Assembly: GCA_964608495.1 (NCBI GenBank)
Contig: CAZSOQ010000003.1
Location: 1-49,573, forward strand
Direction of reading: 5' to 3'
Length of the DNA: 49,573 nt
DNA from: an uncultured Armatimonadia bacterium
GTDB taxonomy: Bacteria; Armatimonadota; Zipacnadia; Zipacnadales; FEN-943
Part shown: in pieces, positions 9,733 through 33,870 of the stretch
Numbering within the stretch: position 1 is the first letter of the stretch
Layout of the letters: each line of letters starts with the position of its first letter
Made by a program: the position numbers and the translations under genes
Notes under the pieces: generated by a model
What the model saw: the letters and a program-made list of their open reading frames with translations, nothing else
What the model was told of the DNA's origin: nothing
Database searches by the model: none

Positions 9733-10617
9733 TCAGTCGAGCGGCGCCGTGATGGCGTCCCGGATGTGCTGGCTCGCGGTCGCAGGCAGGACCGACAGGT
9801 CGAGCTCGAGCCAGGCCGTGGGCGTCGGCCCCCTGAGCCAGCCGACCCGCGCGCTGGTCGCGACGCCCAGGAGCCTGCGGGAACGATCCGCGCAGAGCCC
9901 CGTGGCGTCCATCAGCGTCTGGACCATGCCGGTCTCGGCACGCTCGACCGCCCCGTCGAAGCTGTCACCCCATCCGACGATGAAGAACCTGTCACCCCGA
10001 AGGCCGTAGGGCGTGGGTAGGCCCAGGCCCGCGACGCGATGCACACGGAGCGTGGCCACGGCCGCCACCTCGAGGCCCTGGCCGCTGATCTCGCCGTCGC
10101 CCATGACGGCGTGGACGTCCCCCAGGCCCAGGCCCACCTCAGGGGCCCGCGCCAGGAAGCAGACGGTTGCCCCCGGGCCGATGATCGTGCAGTCCAGGTT
10201 CCCGCCGTGGTCACCCGCGCGGAGGGTGTCGAGAGGGCCGTCGGCGGGGGCAACCCCGATCGTGCCGACGTTGGGCGCCAGCGGCAGACCCAGGCCCGGA
10301 GCGTAGATGGCCAGCCCGGCGCACGGGTCCAGGGGAATCTCCGTGAGCGCGTCCCTCGTGCCCACGAAGCTGTTGCCGACGGGCTCGACGCTGAGCAGCT
10401 CCACCGCCACCGTCTCCCCCACCTCGACCCCCGTCACGGCCAGGGGCCCGGTGACAGGGTTGGGGCCGAGCTCGCGCTCGGGGACGGCCGCCGCGGGGAA
10501 GCCGCCGAAGCAGTCGCGCAGCTCCACGGCCACGGTCTCGCCCGGGTCCACGCGGTGAGGGAAGGCGATGTCCGGCGAGAGCACGTCGGATACCAGGTCG
10601 CAGGCCAGTCTGCGCAT
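9733..10617 (-). CDS. Acetamidase/formamidase family protein
   Basis: NPVTGP, DHGGNLD, LGDVHAVMGDGEISGQGLE motifs. Confidence 0.88.
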   Translation of the reverse strand: MRRLACDLVSDVLSPDIAFPHRVDPGETVAVELRDCFGGFPAAAVPERELGPNPVTGPLAVTGVEVGETVAVELLSVEPVGNSFVGTRDALTEIPLDPCAGLAIYAPGLGLPLAPNVGTIGVAPADGPLDTLRAGDHGGNLDCTIIGPGATVCFLARAPEVGLGLGDVHAVMGDGEISGQGLEVAAVATLRVHRVAGLGLPTPYGLRGDRFFIVGWGDSFDGAVERAETGMVQTLMDATGLCADRSRRLLGVATSARVGWLRGPTPTAWLELDLSVLPATASQHIRDAITAPLD

Positions 10618-10678
10618 GAGCACCCCTCGCGAGCCGCAGGAAGTGATATCGCCGACCGTCCCGCCGGATCGGCGGCGC

Positions 10679-11482
10679 CTAGACCAGGCGCTGACCGTGG
10701 GCCTGCTCCCAGCGCCGCCGGTCGTTGACGGTCTGCAGGTCCACGAGGTGGTCCCAGCCGAGGCCGGCGGCGGCCATCAGCCTCTCGCAGAAGCCCAGGT
10801 TGCCCACGGCGCCGCAGGAGTGGGCATCGCTGCCCACCACGAAGTTGACGCCCTCGTCGGCGAACAGGCGCAGGACGGGAACGATCTGCTCGACGTAGTC
10901 CTCGACCGACAGGTCCGGGTGCCACCAGAAGGCCTGGTTCATGATCTCGTAGGCGCAGCCGTGGGCCGCCATGGCTTCGGCGATGCGCCTGAGCATGTCG
11001 CGGGGGAGATCCTCGGGATTGGCGCAGGCCGGGAAGCGGCCCAGGTTGAGGGGATGGGCCACCGCGTCCACCACCGGGTTGGCGGCGGCGGCGCACATCG
11101 CGCTCTCGACGTTGTTGAGGAAGCCCTCGACGGTCGCGGGCGGATTGGCCCCGATCCCTTCGGACCGGCCGCCGAAGTCCGCGAGGACCCAGCGGAGCAG
11201 GCGGGCCTGGTCGCCGCCGATGCTCACTTTGCCCGCGGGATTCAGAATCACGGCCTCGGCTCCTGGGACGACGGTGATGAGGCTGGCGGCGTCAGCCTGG
11301 GCGATGGCGCGGACCCAGTCGGCCAGGGGCTCGTCACCCCAGAAGTGGTCGGTGATCGCCACACAGGCCAGGCCCACGGCCTCGGCGCCGCGGACGCACT
11401 CGATCAGCGAGTTGCGTCCGTCGGAGTTGGTGGTGTGGACGTGGGCGTCGTAGGGCAGCCGGCTAGAAGCCCGCGCGGACAT
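10679..11482 (-). CDS. PHP domain metal-dependent phosphoesterase
   Basis: DAHVHTTNSDG, AITDH, GAE, AHP, EIMN, GSDAH motifs. Confidence 0.88.
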   Translation of the reverse strand: MSARASSRLPYDAHVHTTNSDGRNSLIECVRGAEAVGLACVAITDHFWGDEPLADWVRAIAQADAASLITVVPGAEAVILNPAGKVSIGGDQARLLRWVLADFGGRSEGIGANPPATVEGFLNNVESAMCAAAANPVVDAVAHPLNLGRFPACANPEDLPRDMLRRIAEAMAAHGCAYEIMNQAFWWHPDLSVEDYVEQIVPVLRLFADEGVNFVVGSDAHSCGAVGNLGFCERLMAAAGLGWDHLVDLQTVNDRRRWEQAHGQRLV

Positions 11483-12260
11483 CGCGTATGGCCTCCCGGA
11501 GAAGGTCCCTGGTGGCCCGCAGCGCCTGCCTGGCGACCTGGACGGGGTCGTCGAAGGGGCCGAAGAGGTCCAGCGTGAGGACCCCGCGGAATCCGGCGCG
11601 CCACAGGTCCAGGACGACGCCTTTCAGGTCCATGTCGCCTTGGCCGGGCAACTGGTGGCGGTGTTCGCCAAGCGGCATGTCCTCGAAGTGAGTGTGGGCA
11701 ATAACGCCCTCGAGGGCGCGGATGGCCGCGCCGAGGTCGGGCTCGGTCAGGAAGGCGTGGCCGACGTCGAGGTTGACGGCCAGCGAGTGCGCCGGGCAGT
11801 CCGCCAGGAGCTTGAGGGCATCGGTGACATCCGCGACGAGCAGGCCCGGCTCGGGCTCCATGGCCACCACGACGCCGATCTCCTCGGCGGCGCGGGCCAC
11901 GTCGCACAGGTGGGCCGTCACCTCGGCCGCGTCGGCCTCGGGCGAGGGTGGCGGAGTGTTGAGGACTACGGTGTCAACGCCGAACCAGGGCGCGCCCCGC
12001 ACGGCGGCCGTCTGGCGGGCGGCTCGCCCCTGCCACTCCACGCGGTCGCCGTGGTAGCTGAGGGAGTGCAGGTCCAGGCCCCACCTCTGCGCAGCCTCCA
12101 GCACCTCCGCCGCCTTCCGGGGCGTGAGCCGCAGCGGGTCCAGATCCTCCCGCTCGAGGCACAGCTCGAGGGAATCGTAGCCCATCGGGCCCAGAGCTCT
12201 AAAGGTGTCGGCCAGGCTCAGCTTGCCGAAGCTCGCGGTACGGTATCCTACACGGTACAA
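11463..12260 (-). CDS. Sugar phosphate isomerase/epimerase (AP-endonuclease-2 / xylose-isomerase-like TIM barrel)
   Basis: MEPEPG, NLDVGH, HTHFED, HQLPGQG motifs; AAGGAG RBS before the TTG. Confidence 0.85.
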   Translation of the reverse strand: MYRVGYRTASFGKLSLADTFRALGPMGYDSLELCLEREDLDPLRLTPRKAAEVLEAAQRWGLDLHSLSYHGDRVEWQGRAARQTAAVRGAPWFGVDTVVLNTPPPSPEADAAEVTAHLCDVARAAEEIGVVVAMEPEPGLLVADVTDALKLLADCPAHSLAVNLDVGHAFLTEPDLGAAIRALEGVIAHTHFEDMPLGEHRHQLPGQGDMDLKGVVLDLWRAGFRGVLTLDLFGPFDDPVQVARQALRATRDLLREAIRDVRAGF

Positions 12261-28092: not shown

Positions 28093-28980
28093 ATGGCCAT
28101 GTTCAGACTGGGCGTGATCAGCGACGAGGTGTCGCAGGACTTCGAGCGCGTGATGCAGGTCCTGCAGGAGTTCGGAGTCCCCACGGTGGAGCCGCGCTCG
28201 GTGTGGGACAAGAACCCGCAGCAGCTCGAGGACGAGGATATCGCGCGCATGAAGGCGCTGATGGCACAGTACGGGATAGAGTGCTGCTCGATAGCCACGC
28301 CCTTCCTCAAGTGCGACGTGGGCGACGCCGAGCAGTACGCGGAGCACCTGGGGATCCTGAGGCGGTGCCTGGCGCTGGCGCAGGAGCTTGGCGCGCCGGT
28401 GATACGAACCTTCGTGTTCTGGCGCACGGGCCCGGCGCGGGACGTCTGGCAGCGGCTTCTCGACGCCTACGAGGAGCCCGTGAAGCTGGCCGAAGAGGCC
28501 GGCGTGACCCTGTGCCTGGAGAACGAAGCCTCGACGCACCTGGCCACAGCCCAGGAGACGGCGGAGTTCTGCGCGGCCGTCAACCACCCGCGGGTGCGGG
28601 CCATCTGGGACCCGGCCAACGAGGTGTATGCCGAGGAGGGCGTGCTGCCCTTTCCCGATGCCTTCGAGCGGATCAGGCCCTGGATGATCCACATGCACAT
28701 CAAGGACGCGGTGAAGGGCCCGGACGGGGAGGCGCGCTGCGTGCCCGTGGGTGACGGCGGATACATAGACTACCCGGCGCAGTTCAGGGCCCTGATGGAC
28801 ATGGGCTACGAGGGCGTCTGCTCCCTCGAGACCCACTGGCGGCCCACGGAGGAGCTGGACGAGGACCTGCTGAACCGCCCGGGCGGCTCGGCCTTCTCGG
28901 CGACGGGCGAGCCGGCCACTCGCCTCTGCCTGGAGAAGATCCAGGCGATGCTGGCGAGCATCGGGGGGCGGGCCGGGTAG
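28093..28980 (+). CDS. Sugar phosphate isomerase/epimerase TIM-barrel protein
   Basis: GVISDEVSQD, LENE, WDPAN, HMHIKD, SLETH. Confidence 0.85.
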   Translation: MAMFRLGVISDEVSQDFERVMQVLQEFGVPTVEPRSVWDKNPQQLEDEDIARMKALMAQYGIECCSIATPFLKCDVGDAEQYAEHLGILRRCLALAQELGAPVIRTFVFWRTGPARDVWQRLLDAYEEPVKLAEEAGVTLCLENEASTHLATAQETAEFCAAVNHPRVRAIWDPANEVYAEEGVLPFPDAFERIRPWMIHMHIKDAVKGPDGEARCVPVGDGGYIDYPAQFRALMDMGYEGVCSLETHWRPTEELDEDLLNRPGGSAFSATGEPATRLCLEKIQAMLASIGGRAG

Positions 28981-29153: not shown

Positions 29154-29738
29154 ATGTCCGAGATGAAGGTGAAGATCTGCGTCGTAGGCTCGGCCGGGGG
29201 TCCGATGGACGAGGGGATCTCGGCCCAGGCCCGCCTTCTCGGCAGGACAGTGGCCGAGCGAGGCTGCGTTCTGATCACGGGCGCCTGCCCCGGCTACCCG
29301 CAGCAGGCGGTGCTGGGGGCCAAGGAGAGGGGCGGGTTCGTGGTGGGCATATCGCCGGCGCTGAGCTGGAAGGAGCACGTCGAGCGGTACCACGCGCCCT
29401 GGCGCGAGTATGACGCCCTGGTCTACGCCGGGAGCGGGCTGATGGGGCGCGAGGTACACATCATTCGCACGGGCGACGTCGTGCTAGTGGTGGCGGGCCG
29501 GTCAGGCACGCTGGGCGAGTTCGCGATAGCCTACGACGAAGGGAAGCTGATCGGCGTGCTGGAGGGGACGGGCGGCGTGGCGGACCACGTCCCGGCGCTG
29601 CTGCAGGTGCTGAACAAGGACACCGGAGCGGACCTGTTATTCGACGCGGAGCCGGTGGCCCTGGTGGACCGCGCGCTGGAGATGCACGAGCAGCAGGTGG
29701 CCGCCGGCAAGGCCTACGTCATCCCGGACCGGGAGTAG
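29154..29738 (+). CDS. LOG/SLOG family protein (TIGR00725-like)
   Basis: ICVVGS, LITGACPG, VVGISP, GRSGTLGEFAIAY, GTGGVAD. Confidence 0.82.
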   Translation: MSEMKVKICVVGSAGGPMDEGISAQARLLGRTVAERGCVLITGACPGYPQQAVLGAKERGGFVVGISPALSWKEHVERYHAPWREYDALVYAGSGLMGREVHIIRTGDVVLVVAGRSGTLGEFAIAYDEGKLIGVLEGTGGVADHVPALLQVLNKDTGADLLFDAEPVALVDRALEMHEQQVAAGKAYVIPDRE

Positions 29739-29758
29739 GTAGGTGCCGGCGGGTCGGC

Positions 29759-31111
29759 TCAGGACTCGGGCGACGGGCCGGCAAGGGTGGCCAGCATCCG
29801 CGCCGAGGCCGGGAAGTAACCCTCGACCACGGCCGACACCTCGGCGGCGAAACGTTTGAGCATCATGACCGTGTCGGGCACGGAGACGTTGAAGGCCTGG
29901 AGATCGAGCAGGGCCGGGGCGTCGAGGACCAGCTCCACCGCCGAGCCGGCCGATAGGCGGCCTACATAGCTCAGCAGGTCCACCAGATTGACGTAGGCAT
30001 CCGTGCCCCGGTAATCCTCCGGCCGCGCCAGCACATCCACCTCGTAGGCCTCGTCCGGCAAGCCCGCAGCCAGCATCGCCATCCGCCTGAGCAGGCAGGG
30101 CACGCAGCCCCCGCACTGCCGGTGCCGACGCCCGGCCATCCAACAGCTCACGGTCTGCTGGATCTCCTCGATCCGCAGGACCGGCCGCAGCACGTCCCTG
30201 ATGACCTCGGCCTTGGTCTGGTAGAGGAAGGGGTTGAGGATGCGTCCCGGCAGGCCCAGGCCCCCCGTCAGCGAGGTGAACAGGCCCAGCACGGCGGGAT
30301 GGGTGCTGCGCGTGGACAGCGCCCCCGCGCGGCTGGGCGACAGGGGCAGGGCGGCGGTGAGCACGCCGTTCTCGCACAGGTAGACCTCTGGAGTGGACAG
30401 GCCTGCCGCCGCGGCGGCGCCGAGGGCCATGAAGAGCAGAGAGCGGGACCGGCGCGACGGCTCGCGCAGCTCGGCCGGTGGGAAGGGTAGGGAGCGGGGC
30501 GTGAGGCTGGGCATCAGCGTGACGCCCGCCCCGTGGAACCGCCCGCCCAGGCGAGTGAACACGTCGCTCAGCCTGCGCTGGGCCTCGGCGATGGTGGGGT
30601 TGCCCGAACGGTGGGTGACGAAGAGGGGTCGGCGTTCGGCCCGCAGGAGCATGACCGCGCCGGCCAGTGAGTCCAGTCCGCCCGACACCAGGCACACACA
30701 GTCGGCATCGCAGGGCTTGCCCGCGGCGCCCGCGGGCGGCTCTGGCTCGCGAGCATAGAAGTGAAGGCCAAGGTTGTCGCCCAGGAGCAGATAGAGCAGG
30801 CGGCCGAGCGTCCGGGCCTGGCCCTGCCAGAGGCCCGGGTCGCGCAGGGGCAGGTGCAGCTCCAGGGAACGAACGAACTGCTCGTTGCGGCCTCGTGGGA
30901 CGGCCAGGTCGGTGAGGAAGACAGCGCCGACGAGATCGGCAAGGTCGGCCACGCTGGGGGAGAGCGGCCCGGCGGCCTCCTCCAGGGCCGAGAGATCGAA
31001 GATGGCGTTGCGGCGAGGGGAGCGCCAGTCGAGCTGGACGAAGGCGCCGGGCGCGAGGGCGTCGCGGTCGGCCGGGGACAGCCCCTCTGGGACAACGGCC
31101 ACGACGCTCAC
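29759..31111 (-). CDS. QatC-like QueC-family (7-cyano-7-deazaguanine synthase-like) PP-loop protein
   Basis: SGGLDS PP-loop, RSRSLLF, ENG, STRSTHP, NPFLYQTKAE, TVSC and CGGCVPCLLRR Zn site. It is 450 aa with the N-terminal extension (DL..AV..D...R; LLGD) typical of QatC and absent from canonical QueC. Confidence 0.88.
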   Translation of the reverse strand: MSVVAVVPEGLSPADRDALAPGAFVQLDWRSPRRNAIFDLSALEEAAGPLSPSVADLADLVGAVFLTDLAVPRGRNEQFVRSLELHLPLRDPGLWQGQARTLGRLLYLLLGDNLGLHFYAREPEPPAGAAGKPCDADCVCLVSGGLDSLAGAVMLLRAERRPLFVTHRSGNPTIAEAQRRLSDVFTRLGGRFHGAGVTLMPSLTPRSLPFPPAELREPSRRSRSLLFMALGAAAAAGLSTPEVYLCENGVLTAALPLSPSRAGALSTRSTHPAVLGLFTSLTGGLGLPGRILNPFLYQTKAEVIRDVLRPVLRIEEIQQTVSCWMAGRRHRQCGGCVPCLLRRMAMLAAGLPDEAYEVDVLARPEDYRGTDAYVNLVDLLSYVGRLSAGSAVELVLDAPALLDLQAFNVSVPDTVMMLKRFAAEVSAVVEGYFPASARMLATLAGPSPES

Positions 31112-31887
31112 ACGGCACCCCCCGCGCCGATGAGGTCGAAGCCCTGGCCCATGGTGTCGAGAAGGAAGCTCTGAAGGCGTGGCAGGCGCTCGGTCTCGGG
31201 CGCGGCCAGGGCGTCGCCGAGCAGGGGCTCGGCGGACCCCAAGGGAAGGCGGCTGATGCTGTCGCGGCAGAAGGAGGCGACGCCGTCGAGAAGCTGGTGG
31301 GCCTGGCCCACCGTGGGGAAGGCGGGTGTGCCCACGAAGTCGCTGAGATCGCGGTCAACGAAGTAGCGGAAGGCGCGGTCCAGGTCGTAGCCGAGGAAGT
31401 GGCCCGACAGCTCGTGCAGGCGCCCCTCGTGCGCGTAGCCGGCGATGCGGGCGTCGGCCTCCGCCGGCGTCACCCCGGTGAGGAGCGCTGGGCGGCCGCC
31501 GGTGGCGATCTCCATCGCCGCCACGGCCAGCCCGTCCACGGCCAGCTCGGCGAAGCGGGACGCGGCTGACCACTCGACGATCCGCTCCTGAGCCGTGCCG
31601 CGCAGGGCCGCAGCGAAGGAGAGCGCCACAGGGCCGGCGGGAGGCATGCCGGCGTCGTCCAGCAGGGCGCCGAGGCCCGAGGTCGCGACCTGCTGCGCGC
31701 CGGTCAGCATGGTGTCCAGGCACAGGGCGACACCCCGATCGCACATGGCCACGCGCGTAAGGGAGTCGAGGGCCTGCACGATGCGGCCCGCCACCTGTCC
31801 CGGCTCGGGGTTAGGCTGCCGGTAGAGCTCTCGCACCCGTTCCCACTCGGGGGTGGCGGGCGAGCGATGGGAGCTAGAGGTTCCCAA
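31108..31887 (-). CDS. QatB-like protein (N-terminal MGTS), putative substrate of the adjacent QueC-like enzyme
   Basis: TTG start giving MGTSSSHRSP; an in-frame TGA three codons upstream fixes the start; GGTGA SD 6 nt upstream; GTGA overlap with the QatC-like gene; helical-looking body. Confidence 0.72.
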   Translation of the reverse strand: MGTSSSHRSPATPEWERVRELYRQPNPEPGQVAGRIVQALDSLTRVAMCDRGVALCLDTMLTGAQQVATSGLGALLDDAGMPPAGPVALSFAAALRGTAQERIVEWSAASRFAELAVDGLAVAAMEIATGGRPALLTGVTPAEADARIAGYAHEGRLHELSGHFLGYDLDRAFRYFVDRDLSDFVGTPAFPTVGQAHQLLDGVASFCRDSISRLPLGSAEPLLGDALAAPETERLPRLQSFLLDTMGQGFDLIGAGGAV

Positions 31888-32103
31888 GGCGTGTCACCAT
31901 TGACGCCGGCCGCGTCGAGGATCCCGGCGCGGAAGGGCATGCGCCGCTAGGCGCCGGCAGGAAGCCTTCCGGTTGTCGCATCGGTGGAAGACGAACCCTC
32001 CCCGCCCCGGCTGGAGCCGTCATTCATGAGACTATACAGGAGGTGCGCCAAACCATCCAGTCCCTCGGGCCCACTCACCCGACCCGGCGCGGGGGCCCCG
32101 GCG

Positions 32104-32943
32104 TCACTCGGCCAGCATCCCTCGCGCGGCCTCGAGCCATTGCACCATTCGCTGGCGGTTGGCGGGCATGGCCTCCTCGGGATCAGGCAGCTTGGGGCGC
32201 CAGAGCTTCTCGTACTCGTCGGATAGGAAGCCATCGTAGCCTGCGGCCAGGAGGTGGGCGAGGATCAGCGGCCAGTCCACCTGGCCCTGGCCCAGGGGCA
32301 CGGAGCTCACTTCCCTGCCCCGTCTGACCAGGTCCTTGACGTGCACGTGGGCGGTGAGGGGAGCCAGGTCAGGCATGACGGCGTCAGGTTCGGTGTCGCC
32401 GGCCGCGTACAGCCAGTAGTAGTCCAGGATCAGCCGGACGTGGGGGTGATCCACGAGCTGGAGGAGGGAGAGAGCCTGCTCGCTGTCGGCGGCGAGGGTG
32501 CCGCCGTGGGTCTCGACGCCGAGGGTGACCCCGAGGGGCGCCACGGCGTCGCCGGCGGCCCGCAAGCCGTCGGCAGCCCGGCGCTCGGCTTGGGCGAAGG
32601 AGAGGCCCTCGAGGGGCCACTTGCCGGGGACGGCCCGCACGATCCTGCAGCCCAGGACCTGGGCGGCGCGGGCAACGCGGGTGAGCCCCTCGACGGTCCG
32701 GGCAGTGGCCTCGGGAGTGGAGTAGTCCCCGTGGTAGGGCGTCAGGCAGGCGATCTCGAGGCCCAACTGAGCGGCCCGCTCGCTGATGCTCCTCAGCCGC
32801 TCCTCGCGAGCGTCTTCGGGCTGCAACTGGCCATTGTCTGCGCAGCGAATCTCGATGCCCTGGTGGCCGATCTCGGCGAAGAAGGCCATGGCCTCATCCA
32901 GCGAGTAGGCGGGTGTGCCCATGGTATGACCACACAGCTTCAT
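32104..32943 (-). CDS. Sugar phosphate isomerase/epimerase TIM-barrel protein
   Basis: GIEIR, VETH, ILD, HVHVKD, LGQGQVDW, SDEYE; GGAGGAG RBS. Confidence 0.85.
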   Translation of the reverse strand: MKLCGHTMGTPAYSLDEAMAFFAEIGHQGIEIRCADNGQLQPEDAREERLRSISERAAQLGLEIACLTPYHGDYSTPEATARTVEGLTRVARAAQVLGCRIVRAVPGKWPLEGLSFAQAERRAADGLRAAGDAVAPLGVTLGVETHGGTLAADSEQALSLLQLVDHPHVRLILDYYWLYAAGDTEPDAVMPDLAPLTAHVHVKDLVRRGREVSSVPLGQGQVDWPLILAHLLAAGYDGFLSDEYEKLWRPKLPDPEEAMPANRQRMVQWLEAARGMLAE

Positions 32944-33087: not shown

Positions 33088-33870
33088 GTGAAGAAAGGTA
33101 TCTGCTTCTCATGCCTGCCGGGGTCCCTGCCCTTGCGAGACCGTCTGAAACTGGCCAAGGAGGCGGGGATAGAGGGCATCGAGATCCCGCAATTCGAAAC
33201 GCAGGCGCAAGTGGAGGAAGTAGCGGCCGTGGCGGCGGAACTGGGCATCGAGGTCCACAGCGTGATGGGGGGCACGCACTGGCAGCTCCCCTTGTCGAGC
33301 ACGGACGAGGAGGTGCGGCTGCAGGGGGTAGAGGGCATCAAGAGGGCGCTGCAGGTGGCGAAGTGGGCCGGGGCGCCGGTGGTGCTGGTGGTGCCCGGCG
33401 TGGTGAACGACGACGTGTCCTATGCGGCGGCCTACGAGCTGTCGCGCAAGAGCCTGTACGAGATCCTGCCGGTGGCCGAGGAGCTGGGCGTGGCCATGCT
33501 CCTCGAGAACGTGTGGAACAAGTTCCTCCTTAGCCCCCTGGAGATGCGGGACTACATTGACAGCTTCGAGACGCCCCTGGTGCAGGGCTACTTCGACGTG
33601 GGGAACATCCTCCTCTACGGCTACCCGCACCAGTGGATCGAGATCCTGGGCGACCGGGTGAAGCGGATTCACGTGAAGGACTTCGACGTGAATACCCGGC
33701 AGTTCGTCGCCCTGCTGACAGGGAGCGTGGACTGGCCCCGGGTCGCGAACGCCCTGCGCGGCATCGGCTACGATGGCTACGTGACGGCCGAGGTGCCGGG
33801 CTACAAGCACGCGCCGGAGATCTTCGTCAGGCAGGTGGGCATGGCGCTGGAGTTCATCGTCAACGCCTGA
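33088..33870 (+). CDS. Sugar phosphate isomerase/epimerase (hexulose-6-phosphate isomerase/UlaE-like)
   Basis: VLVVPG, LENVWNKFLLSPLEM, YFDVGN, IHVKDF, GSVDW; AAGGAGG RBS. Confidence 0.88.
   Translation: MKKGICFSCLPGSLPLRDRLKLAKEAGIEGIEIPQFETQAQVEEVAAVAAELGIEVHSVMGGTHWQLPLSSTDEEVRLQGVEGIKRALQVAKWAGAPVVLVVPGVVNDDVSYAAAYELSRKSLYEILPVAEELGVAMLLENVWNKFLLSPLEMRDYIDSFETPLVQGYFDVGNILLYGYPHQWIEILGDRVKRIHVKDFDVNTRQFVALLTGSVDWPRVANALRGIGYDGYVTAEVPGYKHAPEIFVRQVGMALEFIVNA

Follow-up and report, generated by a model that had tools for sequence, protein, structure and literature searches.

The window, by which we mean the whole 49,573-nt stretch of DNA analyzed here, is contig C3 (CAZSOQ010000003.1) of assembly GCA_964608495.1, a metagenome-assembled genome (MAG) of an uncultured Armatimonadia bacterium in the order Zipacnadales of the phylum Armatimonadota. 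The MAG comprises 5.37 Mb in 397 contigs and is 89% complete with 3.6% contamination; the guanine-plus-cytosine content is about 70%. On the minus strand lie two overlapping genes that are the subject of this report, one for a small protein resembling QatB and the other, directly downstream, for an enzyme of the QatC family, both related to components of the QatABCD defense system. An earlier note, made from the letters of the window, had described a 259-aa open reading frame (ORF) coupled by GTGA to a 450-aa enzyme with the motifs SGGLDS, STRSTHP, and CGGCVPC, and both ORFs, the overlap, and all three motifs were found. The features of the pair are as follows.

31108..31887, minus strand: QatB-like partner gene, the presumed substrate; 259-aa ORF with a TTG start and an all-helical body
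29759..31111, minus strand: gene for the QatC-family PP-loop enzyme, a QueC-like ATP-dependent ligase; 450-aa ORF with a GTG start
31108..31111, minus strand: GTGA overlap of the partner stop and the enzyme start (translational coupling); four shared bases
31843..31887, minus strand: partner codons 1-15, the N-terminal tail with Gly2, Thr3, Ser4, Pro10, and Trp15; Gly2 is the proposed acceptor
30668..30685, minus strand: PP-loop SGGLDS, residues 143-148, for binding of the ATP pyrophosphate; aligns to the PP-loop of QatC in the Protein Data Bank (PDB)
30296..30316, minus strand: active-site loop STRSTHP, residues 266-272, from the alignment to 9vlk and 9zee
30095..30145, minus strand: zinc site C323, C333, C336, and C339; all four Cys invariant

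The earlier note interpreted these genes as a stand-alone QatB/QatC-like unit, a writer plus its substrate, lying among housekeeping genes without QatA or QatD, and our searches, the kinship of the two proteins, and the flanking genes support that interpretation. We think it probable that a self-contained, coupled QatB-like/QatC-like pair works here without QatA or QatD, by the mechanism and with the vertical history that we propose below. The chemistry of the pair, its complex in vivo, and its biological output are the parts of this proposal that we infer.

The enzyme matched the QatC model of PADLOC (1.7e-57) and that of NCBIfam (NF041925; E value, 1e-62; 212.3 bits), and a search of the PDB aligned residues 49-360 with the solved QatC chains 9vlk_A (6.6e-40) and 9zee_B (8e-37). 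Its score against the canonical QueC model TIGR00364 was 17.3 bits versus a cut-off of 150.3, and its Pfam QueC match was restricted to the C-terminal zinc region (residues 290-347, 58 residues, 2.4e-7). Thus, in the comparison of QatB and QatC hidden Markov models (HMMs) with canonical QueC that the earlier note had called for, the enzyme fell on the QatC side, while the partner was unmatched by the QatB HMMs and is linked to QatB through its tail and a widened profile, as described below. The three motifs of the 450-aa translation, SGGLDS (143-148), STRSTHP (266-272), and CGGCVPC (333-339), are invariant or nearly so in 21 relatives. Residue by residue, the alignment of these 21 clade members shows invariance of S143, G144, G145, D147, and S148 in the PP-loop, of the four zinc-site residues C323, C333, C336, and C339, of T267, S269, T270, and P272, and of D56, which aligns with the catalytic D63 of Escherichia coli QatC. 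A published list of QatC motifs that replace the catalytic motifs of QueC (D-x4-R-x7-WxR, DxW/YxxxF, RxRxxxF/Y, HP, P-x4-TK, and the catalytic Asp; PMC13329287) can be read in the enzyme as D68..R73..(W/F)VR81, D112..F118, R221-x-R223..F, H271-P272, and P294..T299-K300. The first Cys of the zinc site is spaced as C-x9-CGGCxxC, the canonical spacing being C-x19 (PMC13329287). Pseudomonas aeruginosa QatC has two invariant threonines in the substrate site, T278 and T280, and the T280 position tolerates neither Ala nor Asp (PMC13279940). The equivalent of T278 is kept as T267, and the T280 position is occupied by Ser269, a conservative change that is present in 32 of the 33 order-level core copies; canonical proteins and some class-level copies have Thr-Thr. 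Like QatC, the enzyme has N- and C-terminal extensions around its QueC core (450 aa, with a core alignment of 49-360), and residues 364-406 and 438-442 lie in the predicted interface with the partner. By its sequence, then, the enzyme is a member of the QatC family and not of the tRNA QueC cluster, and its conserved residues indicate that it is catalytically complete.

The reading frame of the partner is closed by a TGA codon two codons ahead of the TTG and can therefore open only at this TTG, giving Met-Gly-Thr-Ser. The automatic gene call instead starts the partner at Val18 and loses the Gly2 tail (31836-31887, minus strand): the database copy has 242 aa, and the ESM Atlas copy begins at residue 18. 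Start-site misannotation of the same kind has been reported for QatB (PMC13279940). The start codon of the Met-Gly-Thr-Ser tail varies, being ATG in 11 of 14 relatives sampled, TTG in this genome, and apparently CTG in one relative. Within the tail, G2, T3, S4, R8, S9, P10, T12, E14, and W15 are invariant in 30 partner-family sequences, and Gly2, Pro10, and Trp15, together with Gly186 in the body, are invariant across 45 diverse relatives. Canonical QatB proteins from other Armatimonadota have the same tail start, with Pro at position 10 and Trp at position 15, and the Met-Gly-Thr-Ser start and the conserved Pro and Trp of QatB are essential for defense (PMC13279940; PMC13639016).

Kinship beyond the tail emerged when the partner alignment was widened with distant relatives from a profile search of 1.84 billion representatives, which, with E-value limits of 1e-3, 1e-10, and 1e-30, returned 325, 86, and 41 clusters, respectively (52 clusters without a profile). 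With the widened alignment, hhalign matched the partner to canonical QatB over its full length (96.3%; E value, 1.6e-9; 224 columns). AlphaFold2 (AF2) models of the partner and of canonical QatB, with predicted local distance difference test (pLDDT) scores of 94.4 and 88.8, respectively, have a collinear order of helices; the first helix of the partner model begins at residue 13, leaving a short tail. Canonical QatB carries PF28083 in the precomputed Pfam domains, and the partner is without a Pfam match. In the ESM Atlas, the nearest clusters are without a family, and one cluster at a score of 0.87 has PF28083 on 15% of its members, which we take as a lead only. We conclude from the alignments and models that the partner is probably a remote QatB homolog that lies outside all current models.

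The two genes also behave as a unit. We took 31 loci from species-representative genomes, in six of which the contig ends within about 200 nt of the partner; the enzyme gene lay directly downstream of the partner in all 25 loci where the contig continues. The gap between the genes ranged from -4 to +43 nt in 24 related loci and was 8 nt or less in 20 of them, and in the 33 order-level genome loci examined the partner was always directly upstream of the enzyme. The question whether homologs share a conserved two-gene form, raised in the earlier note, is thus answered positively, and the clade was never beside qatA or qatD in the loci examined.

A prediction of the complex, made with our own alignments, the partner minus Met1, and ATP and zinc included, supports binding of the partner to the enzyme. 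The interaction prediction scores from aligned errors (ipSAE) were 0.92, 0.91, and 0.91, and the best of three controls scored 0.00. Of 80 solved complexes, 58 attain the mark used for this score, as do 2 of 110 mismatched pairs; these counts are only rough for predictions with their own alignments and ligands. The runs agreed in at least 88% of contacts, with a partner pLDDT of at least 91. As the earlier note had anticipated when it proposed modeling the complex, the tail of the partner engages the enzyme in the prediction: partner residues 2-7 and 9-10 touch it, as does the invariant R-D...F-V-G...P segment at 177-200. The enzyme contributes residues 75-82, 219, 256-267, 324, and 336-338 and the C-terminal helices at 364-406 and 438-442 to this interface, and by homology with solved QatC the segments contacted by the tail would surround the active site. 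Part of this result may reflect likeness to known structures, because a QatBC complex has already been solved; the sequence of the partner is not detectably similar to solved QatB.

How widely the pair is distributed bears directly on what it may do. The enzyme was used to query an evenly drawn set of 401 genomes from the phylum, this one included, and matches were found in 41 of the 44 other genomes of the order, 6 of the 8 further genomes of the class, and 16 of the 348 genomes elsewhere in the phylum, where scores were much weaker. A profile of the partner matched 57 of 61 genomes in a second sample, drawn from the order, including 33 of 34 high-quality genomes and all 25 genera, with one match each; QueD was found in 56 of the same 61. 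The pair thus occurs as often as a housekeeping gene does, and its misses do not exceed what MAG incompleteness predicts. A maximum-likelihood tree was built from 55 QatC-like rows (33 order-level, the window included, 7 class-level, and 15 sporadic; none dropped), in which the order-level rows are part of the matching genomes and not all of them. Copies from the order and class form one clade (support, 99/98), and the canonical QatC sequences of the phylum make up a separate one (99/96). Within the core clade, each of the families f1, f3, f4, f5, and f8 is confined to one side of a branch, and five core copies from f2 genomes group together, a diverged second copy among them. Fitting the taxonomic labels to the tree takes 21 changes, where 20 is the minimum possible; the mean after shuffling is 41, and none of 200 shuffles was as low. 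Quick and careful trees gave the same result. Ratios of nonsynonymous to synonymous substitution rates (dN/dS) are 0.14-0.35 in 7 pairs for both genes, and such purifying selection means that the two genes are not a decayed remnant. They are evolving more quickly than the genes beside them: identity to the nearest relatives is 55-63% for the partner and 60% for the enzyme, versus 72-84% for the TIM-barrel and CysS genes of the flanks. Taken together, the sequences indicate that a QatBC-only variant has been fixed and vertically inherited in the order.

The diverged second copy mentioned above (L053:2298-3659, minus strand, in genome G357) is 40% identical, has a degenerate PP-loop (SGAPDS), and lacks the STRSTHP loop. 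It has no partner ORF upstream, a response-regulator-like ORF standing there instead, and it is probably a decaying paralogue.

The components that complete canonical Qat systems were sought in the genome and in its relatives. Neither QatA, a KAP NTPase, nor a SMODS CD-NTase was found genome-wide in the 89%-complete MAG, and the QatB model had no match in the whole genome at E values up to 1. The earlier note had reported no KAP NTPase, CD-NTase, TatD, or queD in the window, and this holds: the first two are missing from the whole MAG, and TatD-like genes and QueD lie on other contigs. TatD-like matches occur on contigs C42, C29, and C135 only, and the best score with the QatD model, on C42, is 98.9 bits versus a cut-off of 230; the QatD model also matches in 13 of 14 control genomes. 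Canonical QueC (177 bits) lies on C134 and QueD on C206, both off the contig of the pair, and TGT is also present in the genome; QueE is represented by a weak match only, to the Bacillus subtilis-type model (46.6 bits versus a cut-off of 206). Among relatives, the QatB model matched none of 19 order-level and 6 class-level genomes and 5 of 16 other genomes of the phylum. In the same 19 and 6 genomes, matches to the QatA model or to KAP-like proteins were weak (at most 85.6 bits) and lay on other contigs. No qatA or qatD was seen beside the pair in the related loci examined, a statement about neighborhoods, since the relatives' genomes had no QatD-model search. Canonical QatA-QatB-QatC order was found in five sporadic genomes from the rest of the phylum (G298, G017, G007, G172, and G273), so the tools used do detect canonical systems in this phylum. 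One of the five loci (L038; G273:C8:26904-28377) has six short pieces in different frames that match the QatA model, which suggests a broken qatA beside intact qatB and qatC.

The surroundings of the pair in the window are metabolic. Three paralogous TIM barrels enclose it, and an SLOG protein gene ends close to the enzyme gene:

29154-29738, plus strand: SLOG cluster-4 protein (PF18306, 2.6e-34), of the LOG-related superfamily
28093-28980, plus strand; 32104-32943, minus strand; 33088-33870, plus strand: three xylose-isomerase-like TIM-barrel paralogues (AP_endonuc_2; E values, 3e-42 to 3.4e-40)

The earlier note had named a LOG-family and a TIM-barrel gene as neighbors; the TIM barrels are as it said, and the other gene is not a plain LOG but an SLOG cluster-4 protein. 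Two of the three TIM-barrel paralogues, together with CysS, occur in the same order on the contig of the nearest relative (L033). A Pfam scan of the flanks also identified CysS, IspH, a polyprenyl synthase, and PTA. No mobility gene was found among the 16 ORFs at 21.8-42.5 kb (the pair included) that were compared with Pfam, the rest of the 49.6 kb not having been systematically scanned. Neither promoter-like nor terminator-like sites turned up (0 of each) in a scan of positions 29400-32400. Of the 8 sequencing runs in which all or some of the stretch occurs, none is listed as RNA. The SLOG gene ends 20 nt from the enzyme stop, in convergent orientation. We considered it as a third component of the system and rejected it: it converges on the enzyme gene, it had no tblastn match in the 31 related loci, and its match to PsyrA of PADLOC was weak and partial (9.6e-5).

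No conserved third gene stands next to the pair in the related loci either, and the downstream ORFs differ between families. The flanks in other lineages include HAD and DHDPS-like genes, oxidoreductases, transporters, and a phosphoesterase. In one family (12 loci; L006-L015, L028, and L034) the pair is divergent beside dnaA-dnaN-recF-dciA, near the probable replication origin region; in L007, for example, the segment 7751-9121 (minus strand) and the pair at 10001-12127 (plus strand) leave about 880 nt between dnaA and the partner gene. No mobility or defense gene adjoined the pair in the annotated loci, no relative of the pair was found on viral contigs, and no close copy was found on plasmids, where canonical qatC at 33% identity or less was seen among the matches listed.

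The partner belongs to a wider family that extends beyond the core clade. Of 143 wider-family representatives, 60 begin with Met-Gly-Thr-Ser, 43 with Met-Gly-His, and 6 with Met-Gly and another residue; in 8 the motif is internal, owing to over-long gene calls, and the other 26 are mostly fragments. Seven soil metagenome loci outside the core clade were found, and all four whose contig continues carry partner plus enzyme; in the two longest, no KAP or TatD domain was found among the 8 flanking ORFs scanned. Class-level relatives (L060-L065, from genomes G092, G372, G382, G194, G322, and G054) have the same pair, with upstream ORFs that match the partner profile more weakly. The partners of G194 and G054 are shorter (202 and 205 aa) and have a Met-Gly-Thr-Ser start with Ser-Pro and Trp in the tail. 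In the partner ORFs of G092 and G372 the Gly-Thr-Ser is internal; G382 has a full-length match (269-aa ORF), and in G322 only a 66-aa piece matched. The G092 partner also weakly matches the canonical QatB profile, and the class-level sequences thus bridge the two families.

Elsewhere in the Armatimonadota, QatC-like enzymes are fused to further domains. Two carry a C-terminal TIR domain (L047:7148-9130, minus strand, 1.6e-15; L044:5970-7907, minus strand, 9.3e-17), and others are fused to a DpnII/MboI-like endonuclease (L050:7758-9737, plus strand, 3.3e-10; and, weakly, L042:7187-8938, minus strand, 5.8e-4). Upstream of two of these fusions lie ORFs of about 260-270 aa with a Met-Gly-His start that match the partner profile (L047:9127-9939 and L042:9055-9834, both minus strand). 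The TIR and endonuclease fusions form a separate clade (98/95), and we found no description of them in the portion of the literature covered.

Comparison with known systems places the pair closest to the QatBC core of QatABCD as solved from E. coli and P. aeruginosa (9vlk/9vll, 9zee/9zef, and 9y01/9y02). The enzymes share the PP-loop, the Zn-Cys4 site, the QatC motifs, and the N- and C-terminal extensions; the partner gene is immediately upstream in both cases, and the partner begins with Met-Gly-Thr-Ser followed by the conserved Pro and Trp. The predicted 1:1 complex likewise uses the C-terminal extension and the QatC-specific loop as its interface, with the tail against segments that by homology would surround the active site (PMC13279940). 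However, the pair is without qatA or qatD and is not a member of QatABCD as defined; its partner lies outside every QatB model and is missed by Foldseek; and the tail is short, with the first helix at residue 13, whereas QatB has 30-90 disordered residues (PMC13279940). The enzyme differs from QatC in the Ser that replaces the second substrate-site Thr and in a zinc loop of C-x9 versus C-x19. The pair is also near-universal and vertically inherited in an order rather than patchy. A survey of 631 qat clusters recognized seven forms, none of them BC-only, with 98% canonical and QatD in essentially all operons (PMC13434339). Libby et al. reported that only about 34% of QatC-cluster genes (cluster 2 of a PF06508 network) adjoin qatA or qatD, and gave no description of the others (PMC13329287). 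In the literature searched, which did not extend to supplementary tables, we found no description of a natural BC-only Qat lineage or of its inheritance across an order.

Three further comparisons are informative. In type IV cyclic oligonucleotide-based antiphage signaling systems (CBASS), the QueC-family enzyme Cap9 acts on the exposed N-terminal Gly of its complexed partner CdnD, and this is the basis of the chemistry that we propose (PMC13279940; 10.1101/2025.04.06.647259). Cap9 is, however, minimal in size (about 185 aa) and retains the substrate motifs of canonical QueC (PMC13329287), versus 450 aa with QatC motifs here; the genome has no SMODS CD-NTase, and the partner is all-helical rather than a nucleotidyltransferase. 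Canonical QueC, the 7-cyano-7-deazaguanine synthase, shares the PP-loop ATP pyrophosphatase fold and zinc site with the enzyme, which nevertheless lacks the QueC catalytic motifs, scores far below the equivalog cut-off, and coexists with a separate QueC in the genome. The fusions to TIR or endonuclease-like domains resemble the pair in the window in that the QatC-like enzyme is preceded by a Gly2 protein from the wider partner family, but they are sporadic, form a separate clade, and carry an obvious effector domain where the window enzyme has no added domain.

We propose the following mechanism. The partner would be translated from the TTG, and its initiator Met would be removed because Gly follows, exposing Gly2. 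The enzyme would grip the helical body of the partner through its C-terminal helices and the QatC-specific loop (residues 256-267), and the tail, with Gly2, Pro10, and Trp15, would thread into the PP-loop active site. There a carboxylate would be activated with ATP and joined to the Gly2 amine by adenylation and ligation; by analogy, the donor may be 7-carboxy-7-deazaguanine from the host queuosine pathway, of which the genome has QueC, QueD, and TGT, with QueD present in nearly all of the order. The pair would have been present in the ancestor of the order, and probably in that of the class, and would have been inherited as a single copy while its surroundings changed.

Several observations weigh against this proposal or against parts of it. 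At 212.3 bits, the enzyme is below the NCBIfam equivalog cut-off of 280, making it kin of QatC at the family level but outside the equivalog, and because the second substrate-site Thr is a Ser, the group that is ligated may differ. No QatB model matched the partner, whether NCBIfam NF041924, Pfam, or PADLOC, even at an E value of 10. A profile of 30 partner-family members found no QatB chain in the PDB, where a control profile of canonical QatB found 9vll_A (2.1e-39) and 9zee_A (8e-31). Foldseek found no QatB from the partner model (pLDDT, 94.4; best E value, 0.37), while a canonical QatB model retrieved 9y02_A and 9y01_A at 4e-5 with TM scores of 0.62-0.73. With narrow alignments, hhalign to canonical QatB covered only the first 61 columns, that is, the tail (73.9%), so that the match over the full length depends on intermediate sequences and on the strength of the tail. 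Since the MAG is 89% complete, QatA or QatD may sit in unassembled DNA of this genome. No effector is evident for the pair. As to the chemistry, the earlier note had taken it as known that QueC-like enzymes attach a deazaguanine to the Gly of a partner protein; for QatB this is less settled, as one group could not establish the reaction of QatC and suspects a different substrate (PMC13279940). Finally, near-universal vertical inheritance is atypical of defense and thus undercuts the antiviral part of the proposal.

The earlier note had offered three roles for the pair: a two-gene defense system, a unit acting with remote effectors, or a domesticated modification system. Vertical inheritance weighs against an ordinary mobile island and makes a fixed or domesticated reading serious. 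We lean slightly toward an output that is still antiviral, because the relatives are immune and a sister clade is fused to TIR or nuclease domains; QatBC alone, in truncated constructs, protects E. coli from lambda-vir (PMC13279940; PMC13434339). A less probable explanation, though one that deserves real weight, is a domesticated, non-immune module that has lost phage defense and in which the lineage uses the nucleobase (or related) modification of the partner's N terminus for housekeeping or regulation. Prevalence like that of a housekeeping gene at one copy per genome (partner, 57/61; QueD, 56/61), a tree that follows taxonomic families, neighbors belonging to metabolism or replication, among which no third gene is conserved, the absence of copies from viral contigs and of close copies from plasmids, and the lack of an effector domain, QatA, or QatD would all fit such a module. 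Yet every relative characterized in the accounts cited is immune; in the sister clade of this phylum, the enzymes carry fused TIR or restriction-endonuclease-like domains, effectors typical of immunity; the pair diverges faster than the flanking genes; and neither a candidate cellular process nor a conserved neighborhood pointing to one is apparent. Stated in full, this explanation would make the pair a lineage-wide, constitutive N-terminal nucleobase-type modification of a dedicated helical protein, no longer immune and fed by queuosine precursors, a possibility that we hold tentatively.

That the pair is instead an ordinary accessory defense system, spreading horizontally like a qatABCD cut down to BC, seems unlikely to us. 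QatBC alone is enough against some phages (PMC13279940), the wider partner family of 325 clusters extends beyond the clade, and the soil loci outside the core clade carry both genes (4/4 continuing, 7 found), the two longest without KAP or TatD in 8 ORFs; but within the clade the distribution is anything but patchy, the monophyly of families agrees with vertical descent, and no mobility or defense genes adjoin the pair in annotated loci. We judge it very improbable that the pair is a decayed qatABCD remnant or depends on a QatA or QatD encoded elsewhere. Such a history could be imagined from the canonical QatA-QatB-QatC operons of five genomes elsewhere in the phylum and from the generic TatD-like gene on C42 (98.9 bits), but across dozens of genomes the two genes remain intact and coupled, with purifying selection acting on them; the genome has no QatA or KAP NTPase, and the KAP-like matches of the order are weak and on other contigs; and the TatD match is far under the QatD cut-off of 230 bits, with a model that matches 13 of 14 controls. 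We find it even more improbable that the enzyme is a metabolic paralogue of QueC, producing preQ0 or a similar small molecule, beside an unrelated upstream ORF. The Pfam QueC match to the C-terminal zinc region (2.4e-7) is what speaks for it, against a TIGR00364 score of 17.3 bits where 150.3 is the cut-off, a true QueC (177 bits) on C134, QatC-specific motifs in place of the QueC catalytic ones, a partner that is always present, coupled to the enzyme, and predicted to bind it, and the failure of E. coli QatC to complement a queC deletion (PMC13329287).

On the reading that we prefer, a self-contained QatB-like/QatC-like pair working without QatA or QatD, the locus would be a natural minimal system: two proteins that have been kept together through the divergence of an order without QatA, QatD, or a fused effector, and hence a clean subject for biochemistry. 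Its compact partner, with a short tail and a confident AF2 model (pLDDT, 94.4), may ease structural work. Because the QatB models miss a family of at least 325 clusters, surveys based on such models may undercount Qat-like systems. The locus bears on two questions that the cited reports leave open, namely, the chemistry of QatC and how modified QatB stops phages (PMC13279940; PMC13639016). It is unusual for a defense-type module to be as prevalent as a housekeeping gene, and the pair would represent either a fixed "core" immunity or a domesticated protein modification; if the latter is true, it would be the first non-immune use of chemistry like protein deazaguanylation.

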